Shown here: piece after piece, positions 1,866 through 33,161 of the stretch
Numbering within the stretch: position 1 is the stretch's first letter
How the letters are laid out: every line of letters starts with the position of its first letter
Origin: Bacteroidia bacterium
GTDB lineage: Bacteria; Bacteroidota; Bacteroidia; Flavobacteriales; Flavobacteriaceae
Direction: 5' to 3'
Assembly: GCA_030428865.1 (NCBI GenBank)
Contig: JAUIEK010000009.1
Span: forward strand, 4,876 to 68,875
Length of the DNA: 64,000 nucleotides
The notes under the pieces: model-generated
Databases searched by the model: none
Told to the model about the DNA's origin: nothing
What the model saw: only the letters and a program-made list of their open reading frames with translations
Program-made: the position numbers and the translations under genes

Positions 1866-1941
1866 AAAACGCTTACGTGAAAAAAAGAGTTAGGAATAAG
1901 CAATCTTCTATAGTTTATAACTTGAATGACATAGATAAAAC

Positions 1942-2163: not shown

Positions 2164-2605
2164 GAAATCAAAAATTACTAACTGGAAATTACTGGAAGTC
2201 CTTGAAAATATTAAAATCATAAATAATGATTCAGGTAAATATTTTAATCTTATAGCTAAAAAGTTTGATATTCCTCTTACCAATTTTAGTGGAGTAGATA
2301 GAGAAAAAACACATATAGATTGGTCAAAAATGGCTAATTACAATAAATTTTTTTCTGGAGGTGAAGACGAATTAGAAAATATAATTGCTTTTAAAAACTC
2401 TAGATTAGCTAAGAAAGAAAATTTAGTTATGTTGTATGGCTATGATGAACCTACGGTTCTCATTCCTGCAGATTTATTTATCTCAGATTGGGAAGATTTT
2501 ATGGCTAGTACTCAATGGGAAACTATTATTTTCAGTGAAGACTTTGAATTAATTATGGAGGTAAGCAGAGATTATAACTTACATAGTAACTTCAAAATAA
2601 GATAA
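2156..2605 (+). CDS. hypothetical protein (possible immunity-type small protein)
   Basis: 149-aa acidic cytoplasmic ORF coupled to the upstream 73-aa ORF. No family is confidently recognised. Confidence 0.45.
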   Translation: MIKKSKITNWKLLEVLENIKIINNDSGKYFNLIAKKFDIPLTNFSGVDREKTHIDWSKMANYNKFFSGGEDELENIIAFKNSRLAKKENLVMLYGYDEPTVLIPADLFISDWEDFMASTQWETIIFSEDFELIMEVSRDYNLHSNFKIR

Positions 2606-2672
2606 AAAACATAGAACAGGGTATTTTGAAGAGAATTAGATTACTTAATGGACAAAGGTTATAAACTAAGCG

Positions 2673-3038
2673 ATGATGGTACAAGACTTATTAAATAAAA
2701 TAGTGGAGCTCCCAATAAAATTCTATAGCACTGAAAACAAACTGTCTATATATGAACTATTAGAAGAGACAGGCTACTTTAAGAGTTATGGTAACGTAAA
2801 ACAAAGAGATTTGCTTCAAGCACTTGAGAAATCTGGAGAATATATTAATCATTGGTTAAATTGGTCATCAAATAAGCGTACCACATCTGGTTGGTATTTT
2901 AAAAAAGAAAAAGACAGATACTTGGTTGGGTATTTTGATATGGAAAATAATATAGATGATAGTAAAGAGTATTACGACTCGAGAATAGCCTGCTCACACT
3001 ATATAAAAGAGGAAATAGAAGAAATTAGAAGAAGCTAA
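2673..3038 (+). CDS. hypothetical protein
   Basis: 121-aa ORF in the co-directional small-gene array. I recognise no family. Confidence 0.45.
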   Translation: MMVQDLLNKIVELPIKFYSTENKLSIYELLEETGYFKSYGNVKQRDLLQALEKSGEYINHWLNWSSNKRTTSGWYFKKEKDRYLVGYFDMENNIDDSKEYYDSRIACSHYIKEEIEEIRRS

Positions 3039-3065
3039 CTATAGTTAAGATCAAAACCTTACAAT

Positions 3066-3350
3066 ATGTATTCTAAAATAGATCCTGCTTTAAATGAATG
3101 GATAGAACATAAGAGTTTATATCTTCAAAAAGAATATAAAGGAGAGGAAGTGCGCTCTATAAATTACGTTACTGAAAAAGGAAACAAATACCAAATATGG
3201 TTAACTCCATCAAAAAGAAATATTGTCAAAATTACTGTTTGGGATTATAAAAAGAATAAAGTAGTATTTGAAGTTGAAAACAGATTCATTCAATCGTCTC
3301 TGAATGAGTGCATTAGTATAATAAACAGTTGGGATTTTGTTATGTTATAA
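3066..3350 (+). CDS. hypothetical protein
   Basis: 94-aa ORF in the same array. I recognise no family. Confidence 0.4.
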   Translation: MYSKIDPALNEWIEHKSLYLQKEYKGEEVRSINYVTEKGNKYQIWLTPSKRNIVKITVWDYKKNKVVFEVENRFIQSSLNECISIINSWDFVML

Positions 3351-3372
3351 TAATTTAACCCATTCTTAGATT

Positions 3373-3624
3373 ATGGAAATAGATATTGAAAATAAACTAA
3401 GGATAGATTTTAAAAATAACTTTGAAGAAGCCAAGAAGTTACTAGAATTATTTGAAGATAAACATCAATTAAGTTCCAGAGTAAGTAGAAGTATTATTAA
3501 ACTTTCTAACGGAGATATTAATGTTTTTATTGCTAAAATGAAAGAAGCTGAAGATGACTGGAGGGATGTAGTAGAGGATGCAGAAAGTTTTAGCTTTGAA
3601 CTTAATACTCCTTTTAAAGTTTAA
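3373..3624 (+). CDS. hypothetical protein
   Basis: 83-aa acidic ORF, the last gene of the array. I recognise no family. Confidence 0.4.
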   Translation: MEIDIENKLRIDFKNNFEEAKKLLELFEDKHQLSSRVSRSIIKLSNGDINVFIAKMKEAEDDWRDVVEDAESFSFELNTPFKV

Positions 3625-3720: not shown

Positions 3721-3751
3721 CACCTGTAAATAAATCATTTACAGGTGTTTT
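3721..3751. terminator. bidirectional intrinsic terminator between the small-gene array and ssrA
   Basis: Perfect 10-bp stem, cacctgtaaa (3721-3730) with tttacaggtg (3738-3747). It is followed by TTTT on the plus strand and by tttgaatttt on the minus strand. It lies directly after the tmRNA 3-prime end. Confidence 0.6.
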
Positions 3752-3753
3752 CG

Positions 3754-4150
3754 TGGAGACGCCGAGAATCGAACTCGGGTCCAAACAAGCAGTTAAAATG
3801 CTTTCTACATACTTAGTTTCTGTATCATTTTCGTCTAATAGCCAACCAAAAACAATCTACTACTAGCTTAGCTTCTTAATTTTCAAAATACAATCAAAGC
3901 AGTTGCATTTCTAGAGTTACTTTCACGATGTTTCTGGTCAGAACGCGGTAAATCAACGCTTTCTAGAAACATTTAGCTTGTGTATCTTATACACCGAGGC
4001 CTGTACCTTACTATAAATTCGGGTAATTAAGCAGCTAAAGCGTAATTATTTTCGCCGTTTAATTGTTTGAAATAAGTTTTACAAGTAGTCATTTCACTCC
4101 TTGGTATGCTTACACTCTCACTGTTCTTGCTGTCAAAACCAGTCGTCCCC
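3754..4150 (-). ncRNA. ssrA: tmRNA (transfer-messenger RNA)
   Basis: Read on the minus strand, the 5-prime end is GGGGACGACTGGTTTTGACAGC. The 3-prime end has a tRNA-like T-arm, ACCCGAGTTCGATTCTCGGCGTCTCCA. The acceptor stem GGGGACG/CGTCTCC contains a G3:U70 wobble, the alanine identity element. An internal tag reading frame GGC GAA AAT AAT TAC GCT TTA GCT GCT TAA encodes GENNYALAA-stop at 4027-4056. Total length is about 397 nt. Confidence 0.9.
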
Positions 4151-10210: not shown

Positions 10211-11562
10211 AAATTCATTTTATTGCAATTGGTGGTAGTGCCATGCATAACTTAGCGTTGGCATTGCAAAGTAAAGGCTATCAAATTACAGGAAGTGATG
10301 ATACTATTCATGAACCCTCAAAAAGTAGATTACAAAAGAAAGGATTACTACCTGAATCTTTTGGTTGGTATCCTGATAAAATTACTGCAGATTTAGATGC
10401 TGTTATTCTAGGAATGCATGCCAAATCTGATAACCCAGAACTACTTAAAGCACAAAAGTTAGGACTGAAAATTTACTCGTATCCTGAATTTTTATTTGAA
10501 CAATCTAAAGATAAAACACGTGTAGTTATTGGAGGTTCTCATGGGAAAACAACTATTACTTCTATGATTTTGCATGTGATGCAGTATCACGAAAGAGAAG
10601 TCGATTTTATGGTTGGAGCGCAATTAGATGGTTTTGATACAATGGTTCATCTTACAGAAAAAAATGAGTTCATGGTTTTAGAAGGTGATGAATATTTGAG
10701 TTCACCAATAGATAGACGCCCTAAGTTTCATTTATACCAACCAAATATTGCTTTAATTAGCGGAATTGCATGGGATCATATTAACGTATTTCCTACTTAT
10801 GAAAACTATGTAGAACAATTTAAAATCTTTGTTGATTCATTAACAAATGGTGGAATTTTAGTTTATAATGAAGAAGATGAAGAAGTAAAACAGTTAGTAG
10901 AGAAATCAGAAAATCCGATCAAAAAATATCCTTATAAAACACCTAGCCACAAAATAGAAAATGGTATTACTTATCTTGAAACTTCAGAAGGAAATTTGCC
11001 TCTAGAGATTTTTGGAGAACACAATCTGCAGAATTTAGCAGGAGCAAAATGGATATGCCAGCATATGGGTGTAGATGAAGATGATTTCTATGAAGCTATA
11101 GCTTCTTTTAAAGGAGCTAATAAGCGTCTTGAAAAGATTGCAGAGAATTCACTAACCACAATTTTTAAAGATTTTGCGCACAGTCCCAGTAAAGTAATTG
11201 CTACAACTAGAGCAATAAAAGAGCAATATTCGAATAGAAAAGTAATTGCTTGTTTAGAATTACATACCTACAGTAGTTTAAACGCTTCCTTTTTGCAGGA
11301 ATATAAAGGAGCTTTGGACACTGCAGATGAAGCAATTGTTTTTTACTCGCCAGATGCTGTAGCTATTAAGCAATTAGAAGAGGTTAGCAGAGATCAAATT
11401 TTAAAGGCATTTACAAGAGAAGATTTAGAAGTGTTTATTAATCCAAAAGAATTTGAAAATTTTTTGTTGAATCAGTCTTTAGAAAATAGTGTTCTGTTGT
11501 TAATGAGCTCAGGAAATTATGGAGGATTAAACTTTGAGAAACTTATTTCTTTGGTTTTATAA
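10207..11562 (+). CDS. mpl: UDP-N-acetylmuramate:L-alanyl-gamma-D-glutamyl-meso-diaminopimelate ligase (Mur ligase family, Mpl-type)
   Basis: N-terminus MKIHFIAIGGSAMHNLALAL..GSDD and Mur ligase P-loop GGSHGKTTITSM. 451 aa. Confidence 0.7.
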   Translation: MKIHFIAIGGSAMHNLALALQSKGYQITGSDDTIHEPSKSRLQKKGLLPESFGWYPDKITADLDAVILGMHAKSDNPELLKAQKLGLKIYSYPEFLFEQSKDKTRVVIGGSHGKTTITSMILHVMQYHEREVDFMVGAQLDGFDTMVHLTEKNEFMVLEGDEYLSSPIDRRPKFHLYQPNIALISGIAWDHINVFPTYENYVEQFKIFVDSLTNGGILVYNEEDEEVKQLVEKSENPIKKYPYKTPSHKIENGITYLETSEGNLPLEIFGEHNLQNLAGAKWICQHMGVDEDDFYEAIASFKGANKRLEKIAENSLTTIFKDFAHSPSKVIATTRAIKEQYSNRKVIACLELHTYSSLNASFLQEYKGALDTADEAIVFYSPDAVAIKQLEEVSRDQILKAFTREDLEVFINPKEFENFLLNQSLENSVLLLMSSGNYGGLNFEKLISLVL

Positions 11563-12646
11563 TTCTTAACTGAATTAGTTTTTCTCTTCTCCAGTTTTTA
11601 TCCATAAAACGGCGATACATCCAAATTCTATTTTCTTTTCTAGAAAATGACTGACGTATAAATTTAACTCTCTTTTTAATAGCTATCTTTCTTTTCCAAG
11701 TCTTAAAGTACTTTGCACGGAATTTATCATCGTGTAGTATTCTGTTGTAAATTTCTAAGTATTTTTTAGTTTCATCTTTTTCTTGAAATAACAAACTATT
11801 AGAGTTGAAAGTTTGGTTGCATACGGCTAAAAAGTTATTAATAGGATTGAATAATTTGTCAAAATGTTCAATAGCTTTTAATGAATCTGTTTTTTGACTT
11901 AACAAGAACACATCATATCCGTTTCGTAAAGACATGTTATTAAAATACTGCCCATCGTCATTAACTTGTTTTGCTAAAATGGCTAAACACAATTGATTAG
12001 CATAACTCATAAAAGTAATTCCATCACTCGAAATAGTGTTTTGAGAAACAGTATCAAAATTGAATTCCGTTTCATATCCTTCAATCAATAATTCTTTATG
12101 AATCTCTACGGCTGCAATTTTAGAAGAATGATGGAGCCTTGGTAAGTGTTTGAATTGTGGAAAATGATAACTTTCTTTTGAGACATTTTGATAGTTATTA
12201 CTTACTAGTAATTCAGCTGTTTTTTCATACTTCTTTTCAGCGACGATAAAATCAATATCACCCACCATTCGCTCACTAATATCATTATAAATTCCTTGTA
12301 AAATAAGTGCTGAACCCTTAACGAAAATAGGATTGATATTATGTTGTTTTAGTAATAAATTGATTTCCTTTACTTGCCCAATGATTTGCATATTTCTATC
12401 ACGATTTAGTGAAGAAATATGTTCCATGTATGCCACAAGTTCGTTAGGTAAGAGAGATAAAAGATTCTCTTTTTTTAGGTTATGATACAGTGCAGGGAAA
12501 ACGAAGTGTCCCGTACTAACTTTAACTATGTTATCCCAATCAACTTTATCTTCTTTTATGTTTTGCTTGATCCAATCAAGATTCTCTTTTTCATAAGAAA
12601 TAGTTAAGCATCTAGCTATAAAAAACAAGGCTTCTTTATAAGTCAT
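11543..12646 (-). CDS. Pol-beta-superfamily nucleotidyltransferase (uncharacterised NTP_transf_5-like family)
   Basis: The hG[GS]-x(n)-D-h-D-h signature is present as KGSALILQGIYNDISERMVGDIDFIV. Overall it resembles the nucleotidyltransferases found beside HPr-kinase-like genes in peptide-modification loci. The start overlaps the upstream gene by 11 nt. Confidence 0.65.
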   Translation of the reverse strand: MTYKEALFFIARCLTISYEKENLDWIKQNIKEDKVDWDNIVKVSTGHFVFPALYHNLKKENLLSLLPNELVAYMEHISSLNRDRNMQIIGQVKEINLLLKQHNINPIFVKGSALILQGIYNDISERMVGDIDFIVAEKKYEKTAELLVSNNYQNVSKESYHFPQFKHLPRLHHSSKIAAVEIHKELLIEGYETEFNFDTVSQNTISSDGITFMSYANQLCLAILAKQVNDDGQYFNNMSLRNGYDVFLLSQKTDSLKAIEHFDKLFNPINNFLAVCNQTFNSNSLLFQEKDETKKYLEIYNRILHDDKFRAKYFKTWKRKIAIKKRVKFIRQSFSRKENRIWMYRRFMDKNWRREKLIQLRIIKPKK

Positions 12647-13766
12647 TCGAGAATAATTTAGATACTAAATCAATCATTTCTTGATTATCCGAATAAGTTA
12701 AGGAATAACAGGTAGTTGATTGAAACCAATCTAAAAAAGTTTCTACGTTTTCGGATTCTTTAGATATCCAAGAATCAGGCAGAAGTTTATGAAAAGCATC
12801 TACTTTAGAAATTTTTTTAAGTGCGGTCTTACTCTCTTTAGCGTATTTAATAAAAACTAAGATGCTACAATTTTCAGTTTTTTTATAGTTCTGATGACTA
12901 GGAGGTAAGTAACGAACAGTTTTGTCAAGAGGAGCAAAATAGTACTCTTTTTCTGTTTTTATTTGAGGAAAATAAGTAGAAAGTAAATTCCAGCTATTTT
13001 TCTTTAAACTAATAGCTGATGGAAAGGTGTAGACTTTTTGGTCATTTCCCATGGGGACAAAATCATCAGCTATGCAGTGAAAATTGTGTGCCTGTAATAG
13101 GGCTAAAGAAGTACTCTTCCCATCTCCAGAATCTCCTAAAAATAATATTGATTGTTCTCCATTACTTACTGCAGAGGCATGAAAAACGCCTAGCCATTCA
13201 TCTTCTGGTTTGTTGTAGATTTCTTCTACAACAAGCATATTTACTTTTCCTTGTAGAAAATGTATATCTCTTCTTTTCCAAACGTCATAAAATTTTTCAT
13301 TTCTATATAAAAACGTATCCTCTTTTTTAGAGAAAAGCTGAAAATGTACATGAATAGCTTCTTGTTTTTCCACTTCTAAATAAGAAAATTTAGGGTGGAT
13401 TAATTCGAACTCGAAATAAGATTGATATTCAAATAAAAAAACCGTGTTATTAATTCTGTAATATTTTTTGTATTCATAATCCCGATCACTCTCATAATTT
13501 TTTAAATGATGTTTCTTTTCAGGTTGAAATTTTATATTGGGCTCTACAATATTTTTGTTGACGTCTTTTATAAAGCTGATAGCATCCTCAACAGGTATAT
13601 TTAATTCATTTGCTAGTGATTTTCCTATAAAATCAATTTCTTTTTTTTGAATTAAAGCGATTACAATTTCAGCAGTTTTATTTTCTAAAACAAGATATTG
13701 ATTAGCGGGAGCCATCCAAAGAACAGTTTTATCTTCTATAGGTTTTGTAAGAAATTGAATGCTCAT
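12636..13766 (-). CDS. PqqD-like (RRE) domain fused to an HPr kinase/phosphorylase-like P-loop kinase domain
   Basis: The N-terminal ~75 aa (VLWMAPANQYLVLENKTAEIVIALIQKKEIDFIGKSLANELNIPVEDAISFIKDV) follow the PqqD/RRE pattern. The C-terminal half has the HprK-type Walker A and flanks: FHASAVSNGEQSILFLGDSGDGKSTSLALLQAHNFHCIADDFV. Confidence 0.7.
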   Translation of the reverse strand: MSIQFLTKPIEDKTVLWMAPANQYLVLENKTAEIVIALIQKKEIDFIGKSLANELNIPVEDAISFIKDVNKNIVEPNIKFQPEKKHHLKNYESDRDYEYKKYYRINNTVFLFEYQSYFEFELIHPKFSYLEVEKQEAIHVHFQLFSKKEDTFLYRNEKFYDVWKRRDIHFLQGKVNMLVVEEIYNKPEDEWLGVFHASAVSNGEQSILFLGDSGDGKSTSLALLQAHNFHCIADDFVPMGNDQKVYTFPSAISLKKNSWNLLSTYFPQIKTEKEYYFAPLDKTVRYLPPSHQNYKKTENCSILVFIKYAKESKTALKKISKVDAFHKLLPDSWISKESENVETFLDWFQSTTCYSLTYSDNQEMIDLVSKLFSNDL

Positions 13767-13775: not shown

Positions 13776-14996
13776 TTAAAATTTTTTACCTGTAAATAAG
13801 GACTTTATTTTTAACCAATACACTTGGAATATTCGTTTAACAATTTTATTGAATTTAAAATTAAATAATGTATTAATTAAATCATCAATTGTTGTTTTTT
13901 GATGAAAAAATCGAATTCTATTTTCAATTTGTTCATCCGTATATTTACTATACATTCGCTTGCTAGAGACCTCAGAAATTTGCCACTTTAACAAGTTATT
14001 TTTACGCCATCTTTTTCGATATTTTTGGAAATCGGCACTTCCATTTGATAGAAACTGATCAATATATTCACAAGCCATTTCTGCACTTTGCATAGCATAT
14101 CGAATACCTTCACCACCTAGTGGGTTTACAGCAGAAATTGCATCACCAACCGCAACTACTCGATCTTTGTAAAAAGTATCTTGTATACTAGGGCTATAAC
14201 GCAACGTTCCGCCATGTACATCTAGTAGTTTGTAATTTTCTGTTTTTATATACTCTTTAATAATCTTTTCAGTAAGCTTTTTAGTGGTTTTAGTTGTTTT
14301 CTCCTGATCTTTTGAAGCGATATGAATTTTTCCTGAACCAACTTTTAGAACCTTATTTTCCATTGGAAAAATCCATGAATAACCTTTTAGAGCCCATTTA
14401 TGTCCTAGAAAAAAGACCAATCTATCTTTATACTGATCATAAGTTTCTTGATTGACCTCAATTTGATATTCTATTCCGCTTCCTAAAACCATTTCGGGCT
14501 GATCATTTTTAGAGTCGTACATTACTTTTCGCAAAGGGCCTGTTGCGTCAACTACGAGTTTAGATTTGAATTGTATGTTTTTTGATGTTTCGCTATCAAC
14601 TAATTCAACAATAACGCCATTACTTAGTACCTCTTTCTTAACATACCGATGTCCCATTAAAACTGTAGCTCCTTTTTCTTGAGCTTCATCAGCTAAAAAT
14701 TGTCGCAATCTGCCAAAATCTAAAACAGCACCTTTTGTTTCATTTCCTTTCCATATATATTCTTTTTCTGAACATTGAATAGAAAGATCTTTCCAATACG
14801 AACCAATGACATTATCAGGTAAATTAAATTCTTTTAACGGAGCCAACGTCATACCCGCACTAGAGAAGTTATTGTCTTGAAAACTAGCGTAACGTTCTAC
14901 TAATAATACAGAATATCCTTTTTTACTTAAGTTTCTAGCTGTTTGACCTCCAGCAGGCCCACCTCCTATGATAACAACATCATACTCTACAGTCAT
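13776..14996 (-). CDS. FAD-dependent oxidoreductase (geranylgeranyl reductase / group A flavoprotein family)
   Basis: Dinucleotide-binding motif YDVVIIGGGPAGG at the N-terminus. GYSWIFPM and the GDAISAVNPLGGEGI motif are also present. I place the start at MTVEYD; the longest ORF runs to 15047. Confidence 0.8.
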   Translation of the reverse strand: MTVEYDVVIIGGGPAGGQTARNLSKKGYSVLLVERYASFQDNNFSSAGMTLAPLKEFNLPDNVIGSYWKDLSIQCSEKEYIWKGNETKGAVLDFGRLRQFLADEAQEKGATVLMGHRYVKKEVLSNGVIVELVDSETSKNIQFKSKLVVDATGPLRKVMYDSKNDQPEMVLGSGIEYQIEVNQETYDQYKDRLVFFLGHKWALKGYSWIFPMENKVLKVGSGKIHIASKDQEKTTKTTKKLTEKIIKEYIKTENYKLLDVHGGTLRYSPSIQDTFYKDRVVAVGDAISAVNPLGGEGIRYAMQSAEMACEYIDQFLSNGSADFQKYRKRWRKNNLLKWQISEVSSKRMYSKYTDEQIENRIRFFHQKTTIDDLINTLFNFKFNKIVKRIFQVYWLKIKSLFTGKKF

Positions 14997-15061: not shown

Positions 15062-15097
15062 AAAAAAAACTCACTTTTATAAAGTGAGTTTTTTTTT
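15062..15097 (-). terminator. intrinsic terminator/attenuator hairpin between small peptide gene 1 and the flavoenzyme gene
   Basis: 8-bp stem, ctcacttt (15070-15077) with aaagtgag (15081-15088). An A8 run and a T9 run flank it, so the stem is followed by a U-run on either strand. Confidence 0.6.
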
Positions 15098-15121: not shown

Positions 15122-15277
15122 TCAGAAACCTCCCCCTTGCCCTGATCCTGCTTGTGCGGTCTTAGGATTTAATAAAAAATAGGTTCCTAATGCAGTTAAA
15201 GCGGCGTATTTTCCATAATTACCTATTTTTTTTATGGCATCCTTACGAGTGATCTCGTTTTTTTGTGTATTTTTCAT
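15122..15277 (-). CDS. small precursor-like peptide 1 (51 aa): MKNTQKNEITRKDAIKKIGNYGKYAALTALGTYFLLNPKTAQAGSGQGGGF
   Basis: Translated by hand; it falls below the ORF-track length cutoff. ATG at 15275-15277, TGA at 15122-15124. It is a paralog of the ORF at 15502-15672, and the differences between the two copies are mostly synonymous. Confidence 0.6.
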   Translation of the reverse strand: MKNTQKNEITRKDAIKKIGNYGKYAALTALGTYFLLNPKTAQAGSGQGGGF

Positions 15278-15501
15278 GTTTTAATAGGCTTTAATTAAAA
15301 TTTTACTTGTTAAAAAAACATTCATAGTCGAGTTATAAAAACACTTAACTATTGTATTAGATTCCTAACTTTGCTACTGTTTTAAAGTTTGCTTTTTATT
15401 TTATCACAACTATAGGAATTTTCCATGATTATTTGATAAAATCCCTACAACGGTACAAATATAATTAAATTATTTAATATTTGATAAACTATTAAGTGTT
15501 T

Positions 15502-15672
15502 TTAGAAACCACTTCCTAGTCCCGAGGGAGTGGAACCCGCCTGAGCTGTTTTAGGGTTTAATAATAGATAAGTTCCTAAAGCGGTTAAGGTTGCATATTT
15601 TCCGTAGTTTCCTATTTTTTTTAAAGCTTCTTTACGAGTTATATCTTTGTTAGATTTTGATTGATCTTTCAT
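15502..15672 (-). CDS. small precursor-like peptide 2 (56 aa): MKDQSKSNKDITRKEALKKIGNYGKYATLTALGTYLLLNPKTAQAGSTPSGLGSGF
   Basis: Translated by hand. ATG at 15670-15672, TAA at 15502-15504. The start lies about 18 nt downstream of the stop of the 990-aa gene. It shares a 37-residue block with peptide 1. Confidence 0.6.
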   Translation of the reverse strand: MKDQSKSNKDITRKEALKKIGNYGKYATLTALGTYLLLNPKTAQAGSTPSGLGSGF

Positions 15673-15689: not shown

Positions 15690-18662
15690 TTATTCAATAA
15701 TAATTTTCTTGTTCACAGACTTACCAGCAGTATCTAACTTTATAATGTAAATACCTGTATCTATGTTAGGAATACTTATATCATTTACAGAATTGCCTTC
15801 AAAAGAAATATTAAATACTTGTTGTCCAATAGTATTATACAAGCTGATATTAGTCGTTCCATTTTGTAAACCAACAACTCTTATGTTATTACTGCTGGTT
15901 TGGTAAATACTTAAATTATTTGTATCTAAATCATCCCCTGAACTTAAAACTCCTTGGTTTACGTGAAGATAAAAGCGACCGATACCATTTGTGTTTACAT
16001 TTATATTAGTATCATATTTTTCAACTTCGTTTAAATTGATAAACGTTCCTGCTTCTTTATCTTCTAGATATATATTATATCCATTAGGAAGGTTTGCTAT
16101 ATTTATAGAAAAGCTAATTTTGCCAGAATTATTAACATCAACACCTATAGGAATTATCATATTCTCATAATCAGAGTTTGGAAGCGATTGAATACCTAAC
16201 CTCTTTCCTTCTCCATCAGCAACAGCATGTGTGTAGAATGAAAAACTTTCATTTACACCAGAAAAGATAGAACTATCGTATCCATTATCAAATCCTGTTG
16301 TTGCTCCGTCAATAAAATAAATCTTAGTACTTCTTGTTATAGATCCATTTGTGGCAATCAATTCAATTTTTGCTTTTTCGGTTTCAGTATTATTTCTTTG
16401 AAATGAATCTGTTTGATGTGACTGCATTGCCTCAGTTATACTTAATGTATTTGCTCCATTGGAGTTCACAAAAAAACCTTGGCCTGGTGCAATATAGAAT
16501 GCTTCTGATGCTTGATTTATTTGATCGTAAGAAGAGGTTGATTGATTCCAGCACCAAAGAGTAGCTTCGGTAAGTAAATCAGAATCAATATCGTTTAATC
16601 TTAGGATATTATTTATGCCATCAGCACTATCATTAACAGCAATGTAAGATGGGTAAGGATTTCCTATGGCATTAAATCCGTTTATGTTTGAGGTAATGGA
16701 GATACCAATATCTGAAGTAGGGATAGTTCCTGTAAAAGAAATATTACCAGCTGAAGCTAATTTTACAGCATAACCTGTTCCAGAATTTACTGCTCCAGTA
16801 GAAGCTGCTGTAGAGTAATTCCAGTTAGTTCCATCATTAGCATAAGTAGAAATACCAATGTTACTACCAGTACCTGTATCAAAAGTATGATTTGCAATTA
16901 AATCTTCTATTGTTTCTCCAACAACAGGAGAAGAAACCAAATACCAGTTATTTGTAGCTAATACTCTTGTATATGTTACATTACCAGATGCAGTACCAGA
17001 AACTCTTAAAGAACCTCCACTAGCAATAGATAAGCCATCTGGTTCTGTTATCATAATGTCGTTGACTTCTGCACCAGTAGAAGCGCTAATAATTGGAGCA
17101 TTTATAACATCTGGAATAATCGCGTTTAAAGAACTCGTTGGTATACCATTGCTCCAGTTGCCTAAAGTTGCCCAATCTGTACCACTTGAACCCGTCCAAG
17201 TTGTTGCTAAAGAGATGTCAAAATCTTCGATTCTCCAAAGTTCTGTTGATCCACCACCTGTTCCCGTTGAAGTATAACGAAAAGCAAAAACCACAGCAGT
17301 ACCAGCAATACCAGATACATCTACATTACCAGAACTTGTACTTGTTTGTGAATCTGATGCTGGCCAAGTAGGACTTAAACTACTATTCCAACTAGTTGTT
17401 GATGGATCTCCTGTATAATTTGTTGTGTATAAAAATTCAATTTGTGGGCTAGAAGCATCAGCAAATCGAGTCCAACTGTTAAACGTTAAAACCTCACCTG
17501 TTTGAGCATCCATGTTAAATGATGGGCTGATTAAATAATCATCAGCAGCGCCTGAAGAATCAAAAGCATTCGCTTCAAAGTATCCGCTACCACAAGTCCA
17601 TTCCAGTTCTGCGCCTACAGTAGCTACTGTCCAATTTTGAGTGTTACAATCAGAAAAATCTTCATTGTAAGGAATAGAAGCTATAGGAAGCTCATCATCA
17701 GTTATTGTTACTGTATGTTGACTAGTTCCTAAATCTGCAGTGCCAGAAGAAACAGTAATGTTTAGAACTACTGTTTCATTATCACTATCAGCATCATTAT
17801 TGATATCTAGAGAGATGTTTTGAGTTCCGTTTGCATTGAAAACTAAAGAAGTTGTATTTAAAGTATAATCTCCACCTTCAGCAGTACTAGAACCATCAAC
17901 CGTAATACTTATAGTAACTGGAGCATCATGATTTGTAAATGTAACTGGGATATTTGCGCTAAAAGTGATATCTGTTTCGTTTTCAAAACTTGAGGCTGAA
18001 TCAAAGCTCACGGTAGGATTAGAAGCATCTGTAACAACAAGTGCTGTGGTATCGAAAGTTTGACCTGACCCAGAAGTAGTCCATTGAGCTGAATTATAAA
18101 TATTAATCAAATGCCCTGTTTTATTATTGCTAGTTCTTACTCCTGAATAAACACCATTGTCTCCGCCAAAATAAACAGCATTAGTACCTAAAGTTAACCC
18201 TGTACCTGTTAATGTTCCAGCATCACCACTATCTTCCCCCGCAAACCCTAAAATAGTATATGTTCCTGTATTGTATACGTTAGTAGAGGTTTGATAAATA
18301 TAAACACCATCACCACTATTACTTAAAGTGATATTACCTGCTCTTTGGGTTACAACTCCTCCATTCGACATAGTATCAGAATTGGCATCGTAAGTAAAAA
18401 CAGTGCCTGCAGTTATTGAAGGTGTTACCCACTCGTAAAAACCTTCTCCAGAGTTGAAAGATGAGCCATTCCATTCATCATCCGTGATGAATACTGATTG
18501 ACCAGAGGGTATGTCTGCTAATGCAACTAGAAGGATTTCTTCATTATCTACACCCACACCAATGATTGCTATATCTCCAGCAGATAAAGTTTGAGCATTT
18601 AAGTTGATGTTGCATAAAAACATCAATGGTAGTACGAATTTTAAAAAGTAATTTTTTTTCAT
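15690..18662 (-). CDS. large secreted surface protein with a T9SS C-terminal sorting domain
   Basis: Signal peptide ending NAQT. Calx-beta-like segment (GGDYTLNTTSLVFNANGTQNISLDINNDADSDNETVVLNI). Ser/Thr/Gly/Asn-rich beta-repeat regions. The C-terminal ~80 aa (ISLYNTIGQQV...GIYIIKLDTAGKSVNKKIIIE) are typical of Por/T9SS CTDs. Confidence 0.85.
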   Translation of the reverse strand: MKKNYFLKFVLPLMFLCNINLNAQTLSAGDIAIIGVGVDNEEILLVALADIPSGQSVFITDDEWNGSSFNSGEGFYEWVTPSITAGTVFTYDANSDTMSNGGVVTQRAGNITLSNSGDGVYIYQTSTNVYNTGTYTILGFAGEDSGDAGTLTGTGLTLGTNAVYFGGDNGVYSGVRTSNNKTGHLINIYNSAQWTTSGSGQTFDTTALVVTDASNPTVSFDSASSFENETDITFSANIPVTFTNHDAPVTISITVDGSSTAEGGDYTLNTTSLVFNANGTQNISLDINNDADSDNETVVLNITVSSGTADLGTSQHTVTITDDELPIASIPYNEDFSDCNTQNWTVATVGAELEWTCGSGYFEANAFDSSGAADDYLISPSFNMDAQTGEVLTFNSWTRFADASSPQIEFLYTTNYTGDPSTTSWNSSLSPTWPASDSQTSTSSGNVDVSGIAGTAVVFAFRYTSTGTGGGSTELWRIEDFDISLATTWTGSSGTDWATLGNWSNGIPTSSLNAIIPDVINAPIISASTGAEVNDIMITEPDGLSIASGGSLRVSGTASGNVTYTRVLATNNWYLVSSPVVGETIEDLIANHTFDTGTGSNIGISTYANDGTNWNYSTAASTGAVNSGTGYAVKLASAGNISFTGTIPTSDIGISITSNINGFNAIGNPYPSYIAVNDSADGINNILRLNDIDSDLLTEATLWCWNQSTSSYDQINQASEAFYIAPGQGFFVNSNGANTLSITEAMQSHQTDSFQRNNTETEKAKIELIATNGSITRSTKIYFIDGATTGFDNGYDSSIFSGVNESFSFYTHAVADGEGKRLGIQSLPNSDYENMIIPIGVDVNNSGKISFSINIANLPNGYNIYLEDKEAGTFINLNEVEKYDTNINVNTNGIGRFYLHVNQGVLSSGDDLDTNNLSIYQTSSNNIRVVGLQNGTTNISLYNTIGQQVFNISFEGNSVNDISIPNIDTGIYIIKLDTAGKSVNKKIIIE

Positions 18663-22426: not shown

Positions 22427-23731
22427 TTGGTTTTAGTATATACACATAAAATTACACCTAGATTACGGTATATTTTTAAGCATATTTTTACGCGTATTCT
22501 AGATTTAGAAGTTGATTTTACTGATAAAGTTCAAAGTTTTGTTGCACATAACGGACCTAAGCTTTCCTATACAAAAAACGCCTTAGGAACCGAGTTTTTT
22601 ATACGGTCTTCCGATTTACTTTTTGAACAGGGCATTACGGACATTGATATAAATATTGCAGGTTGGGATGATCTGCCTTGTTTTTTTTATGTAGGAGGAA
22701 AAAGTGCTATTCCGTTTGATATTTTTGCAGCAAGTTTTTATCTAATAACTCGATATGAAGAATATCAGCCTCATGTAAAAGATATTCATGGTCGTTTTAC
22801 AGCAAAACAAAGTATAGCCTACAAAGCACGTTTTTTAGAAAAACCATTAATAGATATTTGGGCTTATAAGTTTCTAAAAATCTTACAGAGTAAATTTAAT
22901 AAAATAGAATTGCCAGATAGAAATTTCACATTTTTATCAACCATAGATATAGATAACGTGTTTGCTTATAAACAGAAAAGTATTATTCGATCTATTGCAG
23001 GATTTACACATGATCTTTTTCGACTAAAATTCAAACCTTTTTTTTATAGAGCACTCGTTTTATCAAAAATATTGAAAGATCCTTATGATACTTTTCAAGA
23101 GCTATTAAGGTTGCAGAAGAAGTATAATATTGAATCATTATTTTTCTTTTTGATAGGAAACTATACTACTTATGATACAAATATTTCTACTTCTAAAGCG
23201 AAGTTTAGGTTATTAATTAAACACATTGCAGATTTTTCGCGAGTTGGACTTCATCCTTCTTACTTTACTATGGATGATATTGATTTGTTGAAAAAAGAAA
23301 AAGAACGCTTGGAGTTAATCACAAACATTCCCGTATCATGCTCGCGTCAGCATTATCTTCGTTTGAGCTTGCCAGAAACATATCAAAACCTTATTGATTT
23401 GGAAATCTATGAAGATTATTCTATGGGGTATGCCAGTCACGTTGGTTTTAGAGCAAGTACTTGTATTCCGTTTTACTTTTATGATTTGGAGTTTGAAATT
23501 CAAACACCACTAAAAGTTTATCCTTTTGCTTTGATGGATACTACATTGAACGATTATATGAAATTAACACCTAAACAATCTGTAGGAAAAGTAGGAGAAC
23601 TTTTGCAACAAGTGAAATCTGTAGGAGGAACATTTATTACACTTTTCCATAACGAAAGTTTGAGCAATTATGGAAGATGGAGAGGATGGTCTCGATTATA
23701 TGAAGCGATGTTAAAGAAAGTAACTCAATAA
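22427..23731 (+). CDS. conserved hypothetical, polysaccharide deacetylase-like protein (TTG start)
   Basis: The N-terminus VLVYTHKITPRLRYIFKHIF resembles a conserved Bacteroidota family usually annotated as polysaccharide deacetylase family. This assignment rests on memory only. Confidence 0.45.
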   Translation: MVLVYTHKITPRLRYIFKHIFTRILDLEVDFTDKVQSFVAHNGPKLSYTKNALGTEFFIRSSDLLFEQGITDIDINIAGWDDLPCFFYVGGKSAIPFDIFAASFYLITRYEEYQPHVKDIHGRFTAKQSIAYKARFLEKPLIDIWAYKFLKILQSKFNKIELPDRNFTFLSTIDIDNVFAYKQKSIIRSIAGFTHDLFRLKFKPFFYRALVLSKILKDPYDTFQELLRLQKKYNIESLFFFLIGNYTTYDTNISTSKAKFRLLIKHIADFSRVGLHPSYFTMDDIDLLKKEKERLELITNIPVSCSRQHYLRLSLPETYQNLIDLEIYEDYSMGYASHVGFRASTCIPFYFYDLEFEIQTPLKVYPFALMDTTLNDYMKLTPKQSVGKVGELLQQVKSVGGTFITLFHNESLSNYGRWRGWSRLYEAMLKKVTQ

Positions 23732-24630
23732 TGATTATTTTTTTAGAAAGAGAGCAGATAGATGTAAATGCTTATGATACTTGTGTAACAAACTCTATTC
23801 ATTCTGAAATTTATGCGCTTTCTTGGTATTTAGATATAACAACAAATAATTCTTGGTGCGTTCTTGTTTTAGATAATTATAAAGCTGTAATGCCGCTTCC
23901 TTACAGAAAAAAAATAGGAATTCGTTATGTATACCAACCGTTCTGGAGTTTGCAACTAGGAGTTTTCTCTTCAAAAAAAATAGATATTAGCATCTTTATA
24001 AAAGAAATAAAAAAACATTTTTCTTACGCAGAGTTGCGTTTAAATCCAGGAAATTCTGAATTTAAACTACATGGTAATTTTGAAAATAAAACCAAACAGG
24101 TTTTAAAGGTTTCTAAGCATTTTAGTATAGATCAATTTCGAAAAGATCGGAAAAAAGATTTGAGAAAAGCTGCTGAAAGTAATTTGATTTTTAAAAGAAC
24201 TACCTCATCAGTTAACTTGATTAAACTTTATAAGCGAAGTATCGGAAAAAGAATACAGAAGTTATCAGCATCAGATTATATAAATTTAGAAAATTTAATT
24301 TGTGCTTGTTTAAGTACAGAAAAAGGAGTTGTTTTTGAGGTATATGCTGATAAAGAAGTGGTTGCTGCAGCATTTGTTTTGCTATATAAAAATAAAGCTA
24401 CGATTCTTGCATCTGCCACCGATTTGCAAAACAGAAGTAATGGAGCAAATACTTTTTTGCTTACTCAGATTATAAATTACTATAAAAACCAGATTATAGA
24501 GTTTGATTTTGGAGGATCTTCTATTCCTTCTATAGCATCATATTTTAAAAGCTTTGGAGCAGAAACGATTAACTATCTTTTTTTAAAAATTAATAATTTG
24601 CCTTTTCCCATTAAACTTTTTAAAAAGTAG
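23731..24630 (+). CDS. GNAT/FemAB-like acyltransferase-fold protein (tentative)
   Basis: 299-aa ORF whose start overlaps the upstream stop (ATGA). The resemblance to FemAB-like GNAT proteins is weak and not verified. Confidence 0.4.
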   Translation: MIIFLEREQIDVNAYDTCVTNSIHSEIYALSWYLDITTNNSWCVLVLDNYKAVMPLPYRKKIGIRYVYQPFWSLQLGVFSSKKIDISIFIKEIKKHFSYAELRLNPGNSEFKLHGNFENKTKQVLKVSKHFSIDQFRKDRKKDLRKAAESNLIFKRTTSSVNLIKLYKRSIGKRIQKLSASDYINLENLICACLSTEKGVVFEVYADKEVVAAAFVLLYKNKATILASATDLQNRSNGANTFLLTQIINYYKNQIIEFDFGGSSIPSIASYFKSFGAETINYLFLKINNLPFPIKLFKK

Positions 24631-25231
24631 ATTTCACAAATTCTTGAAATTTTTCAGGAAGCTTTTTATTAAATGTAATCAAATTTAAATCTTGATTATA
24701 AGGTTCTTTCTTCTTGATTACTTTGCAAGGATTTCCCACGGCTATTGAGTTTGAAGGGATATCTGAAGAAACTAAAGAATTGGCTCCAATAACAACGTTG
24801 TTTCCTATTGTAACTTCTGGAAGAATAGTGGTATTTGCTCCAATCCAAACATGATTGCCAATCGTAATTTTTTTAGATGTGGAGTGTTTGCTTAAATCTT
24901 CTAAATTATGATTGGCAGAAATAATAGAAACTCCGGGTCCTAACTCTACGTTAGAACCAAAATCAATTCCATTAATTGCTTGAATGTAATTATTGATATT
25001 ATCTCCAGGATCACATAAAATTCCTTTTGAAATGTTGTTTGGAGCGATCACTTTAGAAGTGAAATGAACAGGCCATTTTACTTTAGGATTCAGTCTGAAA
25101 ATTTTTTGAGGAATCCAGTAATGAAAAAATAAAATATAGTAACGTTGATAGCCCGATTTAGGTCTGTAATATTGTGGATATAACCAATTAATTAAGCGTC
25201 CAAAAATAAGAAAGTCTAATCGGGTTAGCAT
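24620..25231 (-). CDS. hexapeptide-repeat (left-handed beta-helix) O-acetyltransferase
   Basis: Hexapeptide repeats: GNHVWIGANTTILPEVTIGNNVVIGANSLVSSDIPSNSIAVGNPCKVI. Confidence 0.8.
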   Translation of the reverse strand: MLTRLDFLIFGRLINWLYPQYYRPKSGYQRYYILFFHYWIPQKIFRLNPKVKWPVHFTSKVIAPNNISKGILCDPGDNINNYIQAINGIDFGSNVELGPGVSIISANHNLEDLSKHSTSKKITIGNHVWIGANTTILPEVTIGNNVVIGANSLVSSDIPSNSIAVGNPCKVIKKKEPYNQDLNLITFNKKLPEKFQEFVKSTF

Positions 25232-26805
25232 TTTTTAATGAGATTTTGGCAGTAGTAAAGATACCACTGAATATTAATTTCATTAAAACTTTTATAGTTT
25301 TGATTATAAGGAAGCTGATTATCCTTTAAACATTCTTCTAACTCTTCAGTTATTTTTTTTGCGTTTAACCAGTCATTTTTTTTCAATCTATTTGTTATGA
25401 GTTTATTAGGTGTTATATTTTTTAGAGTATTCTTAGCTTTTAATTTCTTTAAATTAAAAATTGATGGATGCATTTCACTATTATAATTTATATCATACTC
25501 AGCAAATAGAGATTTTAAAATTTCTACATAAATTTTTTTATTAAACTTTTGCTCTAACGGAATTGTTTTAAAACAGGTTAATAAATTTTTATCCCAAAAA
25601 GGCATTCTATATTCATACCCAAAGAAATCATAAACTGATGAAGAATTAATAATAACTTTTGGGGTAACTTCTTTAAAAAGAAAATCTTCATAAACAGAAT
25701 GAGGCGTAAAATCAAAATATGATTTTTTCAGTATTTTTCTAATATGATTTTTTAGTTCAGCATGTTTTTCCTTTTCTGAGTACGTATAATTTTTAGCTAT
25801 TTGATTAATAATGTTTTTTTTTGTTAATTTTTGAGGAATCATTTTTAAAAAATATCCTCCTCCTAATGCACCTCCATCATGGCCAGGTATAAATACAGCA
25901 TTATTAGGAATCAAGTTATTTTCCTTTAAATATTTTACGGCAAAATATTCTTGTAAAAAAAGCATGGTTGAGTAATGAAAATTTTCTTTGCAGTATTCCT
26001 TGAAAATTTCCGTTTTAGAATATCCTTCTATTAAATCATCTTTATACTCTATAAAATTCCACTGAAACCCTAATTTCTCTGTAACCTCTTTGGATCTAAG
26101 CATATCAGCGTTATTAACTTTTCCATAAGTATAAGTGACTACATTTTTATAATTAAATTTTTTAAAATAATAGGCGATTAAACGAGAATCGAAACCACCA
26201 CTTAGCGGAATTACAACAGGCTTATTATTAAGAGATTTTATAAGGTTTTCGAATGTAGCATCTAACTGTATTTTAATTTCTTTTTTTAAAGAATTGCTGC
26301 TTTTTTTGCTATAATCTTTTGTAGTATGTGAGTAAGATATACCACTGTCTACAATTTTATTATTATCAAAAATTAAAAATTCACTTGCTTGTAATTGAAA
26401 TATTCCTTCTAGAAGCGTTGTATTTCCTAATGTAAAACCAAGTCTTTTAAATTCATAAGTATACTGTTGATTGATTGTTGGATTGATTTTTTTCTTTAAA
26501 AAGTTAATATCATCAGTAAGCCAGAGTATATTTTTATCCCAAGTATAAAATAACGGAAAGGCTCTAGTTGTATCGCAGGCAATATAAGTCTCATTACTAT
26601 TTTTAAAAATTACAGTAAATAGACCACTAATAGAATTTATTTTTTTTAGAAAATCAGCACGATTTTTTACATCATCAAAATAAGAATTAGCGGAATCTTT
26701 TGTATGGTAGTTGTTATGAGAATCAAAAAAAAATCCTTTAAAACAAATTTTAGTATCCGAATGCCATTGGAAACCTCTATTGTATTTTAAAACTATTTTA
26801 TGCAT
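25225..26805 (-). CDS. asparagine synthase-like ATP-pyrophosphatase domain protein lacking the N-terminal catalytic Cys
   Basis: PP-loop VVIPLSGGFDSR. The N-terminus is MHKIV..., with no Cys2 nucleophile. 526 aa. Confidence 0.7.
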   Translation of the reverse strand: MHKIVLKYNRGFQWHSDTKICFKGFFFDSHNNYHTKDSANSYFDDVKNRADFLKKINSISGLFTVIFKNSNETYIACDTTRAFPLFYTWDKNILWLTDDINFLKKKINPTINQQYTYEFKRLGFTLGNTTLLEGIFQLQASEFLIFDNNKIVDSGISYSHTTKDYSKKSSNSLKKEIKIQLDATFENLIKSLNNKPVVIPLSGGFDSRLIAYYFKKFNYKNVVTYTYGKVNNADMLRSKEVTEKLGFQWNFIEYKDDLIEGYSKTEIFKEYCKENFHYSTMLFLQEYFAVKYLKENNLIPNNAVFIPGHDGGALGGGYFLKMIPQKLTKKNIINQIAKNYTYSEKEKHAELKNHIRKILKKSYFDFTPHSVYEDFLFKEVTPKVIINSSSVYDFFGYEYRMPFWDKNLLTCFKTIPLEQKFNKKIYVEILKSLFAEYDINYNSEMHPSIFNLKKLKAKNTLKNITPNKLITNRLKKNDWLNAKKITEELEECLKDNQLPYNQNYKSFNEINIQWYLYYCQNLIKKC

Positions 26806-26811
26806 TATAGT

Positions 26812-28098
26812 CTAATAAATTTCACGATAATCTTTTTTTGATACGTGTAAGAAGTAACTCATAATAAAAATATTATAAATTACGCCAACTGCAGCAAACA
26901 TGGTAATTGCTATAACAGTACTGTTATAAAATTTATAGCCAATATAAATGCCTAAAAACCGCAATATTAATTTTAGTATATCAATTATTAAAATAATTTT
27001 CTGCTTTTTAAGTATAGTAATGATAGAAGAGATAGGTGCGTTTAAATAGGCAAAAAACACAAGAGGTAACAAAATTCTAGCATAAAGCCCTGCTTCACTC
27101 CAGTTATCTCCAAAAATTACATCTAAAAAAAATGATAAGACAAAAAGCAGCAGAAAAATCAATATACCAGAAATTAATAGTTTTTTATAAGTTGATTTTA
27201 CAAGCTGATACAAGTTCTCTTTGTTATTATAGATTTTACCTGCTCGATTAAAAAATACTTGACTTGCAGATTGACTCACTAAACCTGATGGTGTTTTTAA
27301 AACTTTTGATGCCAATCCGTAAAAAGCAACTTGTTGAAAACCAAAGAAATTAGCAATAAGAATCACAGGCAGTTCTGCTGATAATTGATCAGAAAAACTT
27401 AATAAACTGTTGAATAATGGAACATTCTTATATTTCTTTAGCAAGTAAAACATTCTTTTAAAAGACAAATGTTTTATATGTTTTCTAAGGCTATTGACTG
27501 AAACTAAGCATAAGTAAAAAGTTTGTGTAAACAGCCCTAAAACATGACCTAATATTAATCCTATTTTTTTAAACCAAAGACCCGTAGAAATTTGATAACT
27601 GGCTATAGAACTAGATTTTACAACAGATCCGGAAGCGATACCGTTAAAATATCCTACTCTGTTATTCCAATAATTAAGAGTTTCTGTAATATTGATAAAT
27701 AATAACCCTAAAGGGATAAAATAAATAAAACTCTGATAACGCTGTATATTAAATAATTCAATAAGGAATTCCTCAAGTATAAAGATGATAAGAAGTAAAA
27801 GAATAGTTAAAATAAAACCATAAAAAAAACTAAAAAACACAATGTTTATAGAATCTTTATCTCTTTTTGGTAAGAGAATAGAAAACTCTAAACTAAGAGT
27901 AGATATGGGTTTTAAAATAATTAATGATGAGCTAAAAAGTAGGTATAAGCCAATGGTATTTTCATCGAATAAACGAGTTAAGAAAATGAATGAGAAAAAT
28001 ACGATTGCTTGACTCAATGTAGAACCAAGAAATAAAGTTGCAAAACTTTTTGAAAAACCTTTTCTTAACTGAGAAAAAAACCGAATTTTACTTTTCAT
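26812..28098 (-). CDS. oligosaccharide/polysaccharide flippase (MOP/Wzx family)
   Basis: 428-aa protein with about 12 hydrophobic segments, positioned in a glycan-modification operon. Confidence 0.7.
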   Translation of the reverse strand: MKSKIRFFSQLRKGFSKSFATLFLGSTLSQAIVFFSFIFLTRLFDENTIGLYLLFSSSLIILKPISTLSLEFSILLPKRDKDSINIVFFSFFYGFILTILLLLIIFILEEFLIELFNIQRYQSFIYFIPLGLLFINITETLNYWNNRVGYFNGIASGSVVKSSSIASYQISTGLWFKKIGLILGHVLGLFTQTFYLCLVSVNSLRKHIKHLSFKRMFYLLKKYKNVPLFNSLLSFSDQLSAELPVILIANFFGFQQVAFYGLASKVLKTPSGLVSQSASQVFFNRAGKIYNNKENLYQLVKSTYKKLLISGILIFLLLFVLSFFLDVIFGDNWSEAGLYARILLPLVFFAYLNAPISSIITILKKQKIILIIDILKLILRFLGIYIGYKFYNSTVIAITMFAAVGVIYNIFIMSYFLHVSKKDYREIY

Positions 28099-33136: not shown

Positions 33137-33161
33137 AAGTTTCTAAATATAATTTTGTTTT

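Follow-up and report, generated by a model that had tools for sequence, protein, structure and literature searches.

Two short open reading frames (ORFs) on the minus strand of a flavobacterial contig raise the question of what kind of product they encode. They lie in a 64,000-nucleotide stretch of a Bacteroidia bacterium genome from the family Flavobacteriaceae (GenBank assembly GCA_030428865.1, contig JAUIEK010000009.1, positions 4,876 to 68,875 of the forward strand), which we call the window and in whose coordinates all positions below are given. An earlier reading made from the letters alone (the sequence-only reading) had described the ORFs as unannotated paralogs under purifying selection and had suggested that they are precursors of a bacteriocin or another peptide that is ribosomally synthesized and then modified after translation (RiPP), with a conserved leader and a hypervariable core. 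It did not mention the dominant association that we found, which is that a gene for a type IX secretion system (T9SS) cargo protein stands directly 5' of the peptide genes. We propose, with our confidence about evenly divided for and against, that the ORFs encode precursors of a conserved short peptide that would be exported, modified and made in stoichiometric proportion to T9SS surface proteins.

A conserved family of short peptide genes

Peptide 2 (15502-15672, minus strand) has 56 amino acids and consists of a variable N-terminal tip, the leader ITRKEALKKIGNYGKYATLTALGTYLLLNPKTAQA and the tail GSTPSGLGSGF. Peptide 1 (15122-15277, minus strand) has 51 amino acids, with a leader like that of peptide 2 and an atypical 8-residue tail, GSGQGGGF. 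Both match a hidden Markov model (HMM) of the peptide family (E = 2.8e-32 for peptide 2 and 3.1e-27 for peptide 1), and the coordinates and translations reported earlier for the two ORFs are exact. In the 37-codon block that they share (ITRK...AQAGS), 14 codons are identical, 19 show synonymous differences and 4 encode different amino acids; our recount thus gave the same 19 and 4 as the sequence-only reading. The 25 nucleotide differences in the block include 22 at third positions and none at second positions, and the Nei-Gojobori proportions of synonymous and nonsynonymous differences are pS = 0.79 (saturated) and pN = 0.047. The two genes are separated by a 224-nucleotide (nt) spacer of unique sequence (15278-15501, minus strand), which is similar neither to the upstream gene's 3' end nor to any of the fetched loci. 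Because the flanks and the spacer are unrelated, only the coding block is conserved, and a recent tandem duplication or gene conversion is ruled out as the source of the similarity by the saturated synonymous sites and the unique spacer. By inspection only, the octamer TATATTTG in the spacer (15463-15456, minus strand) fits the Bacteroidota -7 promoter element TAnnTTTG. A terminator-like hairpin followed by a T-run (15062-15096, minus strand) lies 3' of peptide 1 and 5' of the enzyme genes described below.

A protein search with peptide 2 found at least 1257 clusters at E ≤ 0.01. The homologs are 51-61 residues long, come from Polaribacter, Tenacibaculum and marine metagenomes, and are annotated at most as 'hypothetical protein', with no Pfam domain; no Pfam or NCBIfam model matches either of the window peptides (NCBIfam at E ≤ 1). 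The earlier description of the ORFs as unannotated therefore holds at the level of the family, which has no annotation, but not for every gene, since several NCBI genomes already call homologs as hypothetical proteins. A scan of one genome per GTDB species confirmed 491 places, several per genome, and a profile search of 1.8 billion representatives returned 300 clusters (50% identity) at E ≤ 1e-3.

We based the alignment, entropy and substitution analyses on 89 family copies from genome loci. The 35-residue leader aligns without a gap across all of them, is nearly invariant and contains no frame-disrupting indel. Column entropy summed by codon position is 15.0, 4.9 and 43.7 for first, second and third positions, and the median pairwise ratio of nonsynonymous to synonymous divergence (dN/dS) is 0.074, so the purifying selection on coding sequence that had been suspected from two ORFs is borne out across the family, far beyond chance. 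Many genomes also have homologs at the syntenic position. Were the block instead an RNA element or a regulatory region at the 3' end of the T9SS gene, its tight placement after that gene and before a terminator would be accounted for, which is the only observation in favor of this reading; it is refuted by the codon pattern (third-position variation, a dN/dS of 0.07, and a reading frame kept in more than 170 family copies) and by the lack of any Rfam match at the peptide locus, and we give a non-coding origin practically no credence.

The family consensus is M-(K/N/Q-rich tip)-[DE]ITRKEA[IL]KKIGNYGKYAALTALGTYM[IL]LNP[QK]KAQA-x-S-(V/A)?-P-E-A-P-G-T-G-F. Its N-terminal tip is variable and K/N/Q-rich, and is followed by a nearly invariant stretch, [IL]-[TS]-R-K-x-A-[IL]-K-K-[IM]-G-(NYG)-K-Y. 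After AQA comes a tail of 10 or 11 residues in 80 of the 89 members (overall span 8-13); it has Ser at its second position (+2) in all 89 and ends in Gly-Phe in 78. Members from Polaribacter and Tenacibaculum share a conserved tail of 10-11 residues, x-S-(V/A)?-P-E-A-P-G-T-G-F, and the more general pattern is x-S-(x)-P-x-x-P-G-x-G-[FW]. The sequence-only reading had seen here a hypervariable core that diverges freely, an impression that the wider family contradicts: variable, longer tails are confined to a more distant subfamily, and the 8-residue tail of peptide 1 is the only one of that length among the 89 members, making it a family outlier.

This second subfamily has the pattern ...ITRK[EQ]AIKKMGKYAALTA[IV]GTF.ILNPKKAQA-x-S..., with tails that are more varied and sometimes long or Cys-rich. 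Across all members, R...A..KK.G..Y.ALTA.GT..IL.P..AQA-x-S is kept, and in a wider set of the family AQA is present in 199 of 230 sequences and Ser(+2) in 224 of 230. Several distant members (P0430, P0436, P0453 and P0463; loci L147, L154, L157 and L159) retain the leader and AQA-x-S in front of long tails, some of them Cys-rich and 60-90 residues long, others made of S-K-P-S-[ML] repeats with a basic stretch at the end. The leader is therefore evidently able to carry larger cargo.

Genes on either side of the peptides

The stop codon of the T9SS cargo gene (15690-18662, minus strand) is 17 nt from the start of peptide 2. Its 990-amino-acid product has a type-A C-terminal domain (CTD; TIGR04183, 32.9 bits against a cut-off of 23). 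By inspection it begins with a Sec-type signal peptide, which is followed by a variable Calx-beta-like part, a conserved all-beta module of about 450 residues (15903-17252) and the C-terminal sorting domain (about 15693-15902). The module has at least 1020 homologs, and the only Pfam domain is Por_Secre_tail. An AlphaFold2 (AF2) model of the module, with a predicted local distance difference test score (pLDDT) of 87, consists of beta domains strung together, with a canonical CTD at the end; its last 75 residues superpose on the CTDs of NucA and RemA with a target-normalized TM-score of about 0.74.

This arrangement is the rule for the family. Of 88 peptide genes at genome loci, 85 have the end of the module just 5' of them, as do 53 of 57 at metagenome loci, and conversely a peptide gene follows 88 of 102 proteins of the T9SS cargo family, with a gap of 0-35 nt (mostly 25-29 nt). 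Reverse look-ups that started from hits to the cargo agree, as a family peptide follows five of six such genes. The motif TAnnTTTG is not enriched in the 400 nt 5' of the peptide genes, and for this reason we dismissed an internal promoter for the peptide within the cargo gene; 74 of 88 peptide genes have a terminator-like hairpin with a T-run no more than 110 nt after them, also where a kinase gene comes next. The tight gap, the lack of a promoter motif upstream and the terminator-like structure downstream together indicate that cargo and peptide form a bicistronic operon. These two-gene units occur in varied contexts–for example, in polysaccharide utilization loci and beside two-component systems. 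Within a genome, paralogous cargo proteins are 30-50% identical in the module, and their peptides are 85-100% identical in protein sequence and about 80% identical in nucleotide sequence. High protein identity at such DNA identity points to strong selection, not gene conversion.

Two further observations concern the cargo gene. The motif P-G-x-G-[FW], with which the peptides end, also appears at one fixed position of the module in 45 of the 102 proteins (background, 3 in 310,000 residues), and in the window this PGxGF-type site is AFYIAPGQGFFV at 16448-16483. Local alignments of tail and module scored no higher than shuffled sequences (median z 1.25), and the resemblance is probably a coincidence. 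Separately, a protein of about 190-230 residues recurs directly 5' of the cargo gene at many Tenacibaculum and some Polaribacter loci (L013, L020, L023, L037, L052, L053, L057, L058, L061, L068, L070, L072 and L078); its N-terminus looks phage-tail-collar-like by eye, and its gene sometimes follows genes for a histidine kinase and a LuxR-type regulator.

On the other side of the peptides, 1.4 kb downstream, is the gene for a 376-amino-acid kinase (12636-13766, minus strand) with 1103 homologs, most of them annotated 'hypothetical'. In its AF2 model (pLDDT 90.5), residues 1-78 form a PqqD-like domain (beta-beta-beta-alpha-alpha-alpha), residues 99-184 a middle domain and residues 190-376 a P-loop domain with the fold of HprK and phosphoenolpyruvate carboxykinase (PEPCK). 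Foldseek searches with the model found PEPCK (about 1e-6) and HprK/P (about 2e-3). GDSGxGKST and D234-D235 are invariant, and the best NCBIfam match is TIGR04352 (HprK-related kinase A; 9.5e-16, 57.7 bits, residues 194-371). Repeated family matches are confined to the N-terminal domain: among 15 kinase homologs, Pfam PqqD matches six (best 5.6e-5), and of the NCBIfam PqqD chaperones, WgkC matches nine and the lasso type five. The domain also has a weak profile match to TfuB1, a RiPP recognition element (RRE) of lasso peptides, and the N-terminus of one homolog matches TIGR04353.

The kinase gene overlaps by 11 nt with a gene (11543-12646, minus strand) for a 367-amino-acid protein of nucleotidyltransferase (NTase) fold, which belongs to PF14907 (NTP_transf_5; 3.7e-36, 125.4 bits against a cut-off of 31.2) and carries a G-S...D-I-D motif. 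It accompanies the kinase at most loci. Between the peptides and the kinase lies a gene (13776-14996, minus strand) for a 406-amino-acid flavin adenine dinucleotide (FAD)-dependent oxidoreductase of the geranylgeranyl-reductase family, starting MTVEYD at 14996 (TIGR02032, 5.2e-46, with weaker matches to QhpG and LodB). Among 159 related loci the FAD gene occurs only in L039 (68% identity) and the close relative L081, and it is a clade-specific accessory.

A syntenic block, trkA-trkH-T9SS cargo-peptide-kinase-NTase-mpl, which includes the arrangement in the window, accounts for one cargo-peptide unit per genome. Of the peptide genes, 28 of 88 from genomes and 18 of 34 from metagenomes have a kinase gene no more than 3.5 kb downstream. 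Both reverse look-ups from kinase hits returned the order cargo-peptide-kinase-NTase, and a metagenome scan with the distant subfamily recovered the same association of cargo, peptide and kinase. Adjacency of peptide and kinase persists where the kinases are only 25-33% identical, and at metagenome loci the order is sometimes peptide-NTase-kinase. That the linkage outlasts divergence and rearrangement argues for a functional connection. In the 159 related loci we found no further conserved enzyme or transporter, dedicated protease, ABC exporter or immunity gene; the recurrent neighbors are trkA/trkH, mpl, the phage-tail-collar-like protein, two-component systems, SusC/D, a small protein resembling outer-membrane proteins, and a reverse-transcriptase insertion. 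The last of these, seen in one metagenomic lineage (L107 at 1451-3571, and L140), places a reverse-transcriptase-like ORF and small helper ORFs between the peptide gene and the kinase; judged by eye only, it resembles a retron or a diversity-generating retroelement.

Copy number differs between relatives of the window strain, as the sequence-only reading had thought worth checking. An ortholog of peptide 2 (P0001, 93% identical) occupies the equivalent position in L080 and L081. Peptide 1 is an extra copy that is not present in the closest relative, L081. One metagenomic relative, with a 97% identical kinase, carries a single peptide in place of two, with the tail GSAPISAGSGF, in the order cargo-peptide-FAD-kinase-NTase. 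The 5' side of this locus aligns to peptide 2 of the window and the 3' side aligns to peptide 1 onward, so one of the two arrangements arose by recombination between the two leader sequences.

Elsewhere in the window, 6.8 kb from the peptide locus, is a Vim/Wbp-like gene set (22427-28098). It contains a VimE-like deacetylase (NF053580, E = 1.8e-53, 182 bits, under the cut-off of 440; Pfam DUF7033), a GNAT/FemAB-like gene that may be VimA-like, a hexapeptide acetyltransferase, an Asn-synthase-like amidotransferase that is possibly WbpS-like, and a MOP flippase. In Porphyromonas gingivalis the Vim pathway makes the 'linking sugar' to which T9SS cargo proteins are joined by their C-termini (PMC7468200). 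The DUF7033 and GNAT genes appear, from their size and position, to be syntenic with the trkA-trkH-cargo-peptide-kinase block in Polaribacter and Tenacibaculum, and also in L080; we did not find them near loci of the distant subfamily. Two pairs of SusC-like and SusD-like genes, for TonB-dependent receptors and SusD-family lipoproteins (31646-40975, minus strand), have no cargo-peptide unit attached. The only Rfam matches in the window are a transfer-messenger RNA gene (3751-4150, minus strand, 146 bits) and a Flavobacteria S4 ribosomal-protein leader (57818-57850, plus strand).

The leader, a possible pathway and its alternatives

By inspection, the leader has a K/R-rich n-region, a moderately hydrophobic segment of 12-13 residues (AALTALGTYxIL) and then N-P-(K/Q)-K-A-Q-A, a c-region of signal-peptidase-I type with Pro at -6 and Ala at -3 and -1; for a Sec-type signal, the n-region is of unusual length and conservation. 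To judge from this organization, the peptide is probably exported and cut after AQA, and the Cys-rich tails of distant members, 60-90 residues long, would fit with export to an oxidizing compartment. The window also contains a gene for a rhomboid-family intramembrane protease (30182-30841, plus strand; PF01694, 5e-14), a conceivable alternative to signal peptidase for cleavage of the leader. Rhomboids cleave beside small residues near membrane segments.

The part of the earlier RiPP interpretation that survives is the kind of system, not the hypervariable core. The precursor gene is under selection, and an enzyme that may recognize its leader is encoded alongside, with HMM support that is weak to moderate. 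A RiPP-type relationship is plausible because the downstream kinase has a PqqD-like domain of the RRE type and because the peptide and kinase genes stay adjacent down to kinase identities of 25-30% and where the gene order has changed. We infer the phosphorylation site, the chemistry, export, cleavage and the interaction with cargo as steps of the following pathway. The peptide would be co-transcribed with the upstream cargo gene, in a bicistronic unit ending in a terminator. Within the cytoplasm, the kinase would bind the conserved N-terminal part of the leader through its PqqD-like domain, and the HprK-like domain would phosphorylate the invariant Ser, two residues past AQA. The PF14907 enzyme may then elaborate the phosphoserine, by analogy with the addition of a hexose by PsmN in pseudomycoidin, and in the small clade of the window strain alone the flavoenzyme could add a further step. 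The leader would direct export and be removed after AQA, giving a modified peptide of 8-13 residues that ends in Gly-Phe in the periplasm or at the cell surface, where it may act on or with the C-terminal module of its cognate T9SS cargo.

A bolder version, which we offer tentatively and think unlikely but worth taking seriously, is that the peptide is a previously unrecognized stoichiometric component of T9SS cargo biogenesis. Every surface protein of the large type-A-CTD family would come with its own phosphorylated or phosphoglycosylated decapeptide that, once exported and freed of its leader, binds or attaches to the conserved C-terminal module. While the protein is in transit or being attached to the surface, the peptide could serve as a cap, a linker or an acceptor, for example, and the kinase with its RRE and the NTase would modify all the copies in a genome.

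Several observations weigh against the proposed pathway. Neither signal peptides nor RiPP leaders are usually conserved throughout, as this leader is over its 35 residues, and the leader itself might therefore be the functional part. Sec export of a phosphoglycosylated peptide would be unusual. Foldseek searches with the cargo module returned only generic Ig-like and adhesin arrays besides the CTD, and so gave no functional clue. We read the N-terminus of the kinase as an RRE fused to a serine kinase, a model drawn from weak HMM matches and predicted topology, and a Foldseek search with the whole kinase model did not pick out the PqqD-like domain. The kinase is also a relative, and not a member, of TIGR04352, for which the cut-off is 200 bits as against its 57.7. 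The NTase gene is absent at some kinase loci (L008, L027, L063, L071 and L163). Finally, about two thirds of the peptide genes are distant from any kinase gene, and action in trans must therefore be assumed.

The peptide could be small, unmodified and exported, or held in the inner membrane by its signal with a 10-residue tail in the periplasm, and could help the T9SS cargo as its escort, cap, anchor or assembly factor, while the enzymes would be neighbors through conserved gene order alone and act on another substrate. This would suit a peptide whose near-universal neighbor is the T9SS gene and of which only about one third of copies are followed by a kinase, as well as a leader with n-, h- and c-regions and AQA; it also takes account of the synteny of the trkA-to-mpl block among related genera, by which part of the adjacency may be inherited order. 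Against it, the peptide-recognition domain of the kinase needs a peptide substrate, and the locus has no other small conserved ORF. The adjacency, moreover, outlasts deep divergence, an inversion of the order and the insertion of the FAD gene between peptide and kinase, and the invariant Ser beside the leader would be left unexplained. We consider an unmodified partner unlikely, while taking it seriously. For the route of export, a twin-arginine translocation (Tat)-type signal is also conceivable, by which a peptide modified in the cytoplasm would leave through Tat, with the RRE as a signal-binding proofreading chaperone. The stretch T-R-K-x-A-I-K-K resembles S/T-R-R-x-F-L-K, a basic residue is present in the c-region of 226 of 230 members, a few distant members do have R-R, and modification in the cytoplasm prior to export suits the logic of Tat. 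Tat transport is strongly dependent on the arginine pair, however, and consecutive arginines occur in only about 7 members: the second 'arginine' position is K in 223, R in about 7 and G, E, Q, N, S, T, A or I in about 30. This variability rules out a strict Tat signal, neither window peptide matches NCBIfam models at E ≤ 1, those for Tat signals included, and we rank Tat below Sec because the position is mostly K and is free in about 30 members. A Tat-type signal thus seems to us quite improbable.

The classical antimicrobial RiPP or bacteriocin of the sequence-only reading, with a conserved leader and a hypervariable core, would explain the conserved leader, the RRE enzyme nearby, the several precursor copies and the variable tails of the distant subfamily. 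Across genera, however, the tail is a conserved 10-11-mer in which Ser, Pro, PG and GF are fixed, and the window locus has no bacteriocin-type protease or ABC exporter, immunity gene or lasso cyclase, just as a dedicated protease, ABC exporter and immunity gene are missing from the 159 related loci. Precursors dispersed over the genome, every one of them linked to a T9SS cargo gene, do not match the organization of a bacteriocin locus, and the system appears to be core and syntenic in whole genera instead of being a strain-variable weapon. On this evidence a bacteriocin is very improbable. A lasso peptide, or the remnant of a lasso cluster, would account for the pair of an HprK-type kinase and a PF14907 protein together with an RRE, and an Asn-synthase-like gene lies 10 kb away (25225-26805). 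That homolog scores 26 bits against a lasso cyclase cut-off of 525 and sits among the polysaccharide/Vim-type genes, and neither the window locus nor the 159 related loci contain a lasso cyclase or B2 peptidase. No acidic residue (Asp or Glu) is conserved at positions 7-9 of the tails, whose 8-11 residues are too few for a ring and a threaded tail. With cyclase and protease absent and the Asn-synthase homolog assigned to the neighboring polysaccharide/Vim-type cluster, a lasso cluster is ruled out, and we leave it a vanishingly small chance.

Returning to the modified, exported peptide that we propose, its interest lies in its partners. Polaribacter and Tenacibaculum are major degraders of the polysaccharides of algal blooms, and fish pathogens are found within Tenacibaculum; polysaccharide degradation and the life of the fish pathogens both depend centrally on surface proteins secreted by the T9SS. 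Behind hundreds of the cargo genes stands a gene of 55 residues that is conserved more than the cargo and is named by no database, and its conservation beyond that of the cargo points to a missing piece in the making, export or display of T9SS proteins. If the proposal is correct, this would be an RRE-dependent system in which a kinase and a PF14907 transferase, to our knowledge known until now only as lasso tailoring enzymes, are the only dedicated enzymes, in which the leader doubles as an export signal, and whose precursors are scattered through the genome.

Relation to known systems

Literature searches with the sequence, with combinations of RRE and HprK, and with T9SS and small peptides found no mention of this family. 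The closest known counterparts are tailoring enzymes of lasso peptides. For paeninodin and for pseudomycoidin, the linear lasso precursor receives a phosphate on a Ser from an HprK-type kinase; in pseudomycoidin the PF14907-like protein PsmN is required for addition of a hexose to the phosphate, and the kinase PsmK requires an Asp pair equivalent to D234-D235 of the window kinase (PMC6993621, PMC9266682). The likeness to PadeK or PsmK and PsmN thus extends to a P-loop kinase with Asp-Asp acting on a Ser of a leader-bearing precursor, to a PF14907-like enzyme that decorates the phosphoserine, and to the involvement of an RRE. The window system differs in having no lasso cyclase, B2 protease or ABC exporter, in the place of its Ser (tail position 2 instead of C-terminal), in the apparent fusion of the RRE to the kinase, in its signal-like leader, in precursors dispersed behind T9SS cargo genes, and in its phylum, Bacteroidota.

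Other systems share single aspects. The NCBIfam 'HPr-rel-A system' (TIGR04352 and TIGR04353, PqqD_rel_X; uncharacterized) also combines an HprK-related kinase with a PqqD-family peptide chaperone, but the window kinase is far below the cut-off and the domains are fused here; we know of no substrate peptide or T9SS link described for that system. T9SS cargo proteins with type-B CTDs, as known from Flavobacterium johnsoniae, have a cognate PorP/SprF-like partner gene adjoining. The likeness is a loose one, in that each copy of the cargo gene has its own small partner in an operon; here the CTD is of type A, the partner is a peptide of 51-60 residues and not an outer-membrane beta-barrel, and a modification enzyme is associated. 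PqqA with PqqD, and MftA with MftB of mycofactocin, share with the window system a PqqD-type RRE, a core that is very short, highly conserved and aromatic at its C-terminal residue, and multi-copy precursors, whereas the latter has no radical-SAM or cross-linking enzyme and is set apart by its presumed kinase/NTase chemistry, its signal-like leader and its linkage to T9SS. The peptides of the window are most likely RRE-dependent modified peptides, whose maturation would work like the kinase/NTase tailoring branch of lasso clusters.

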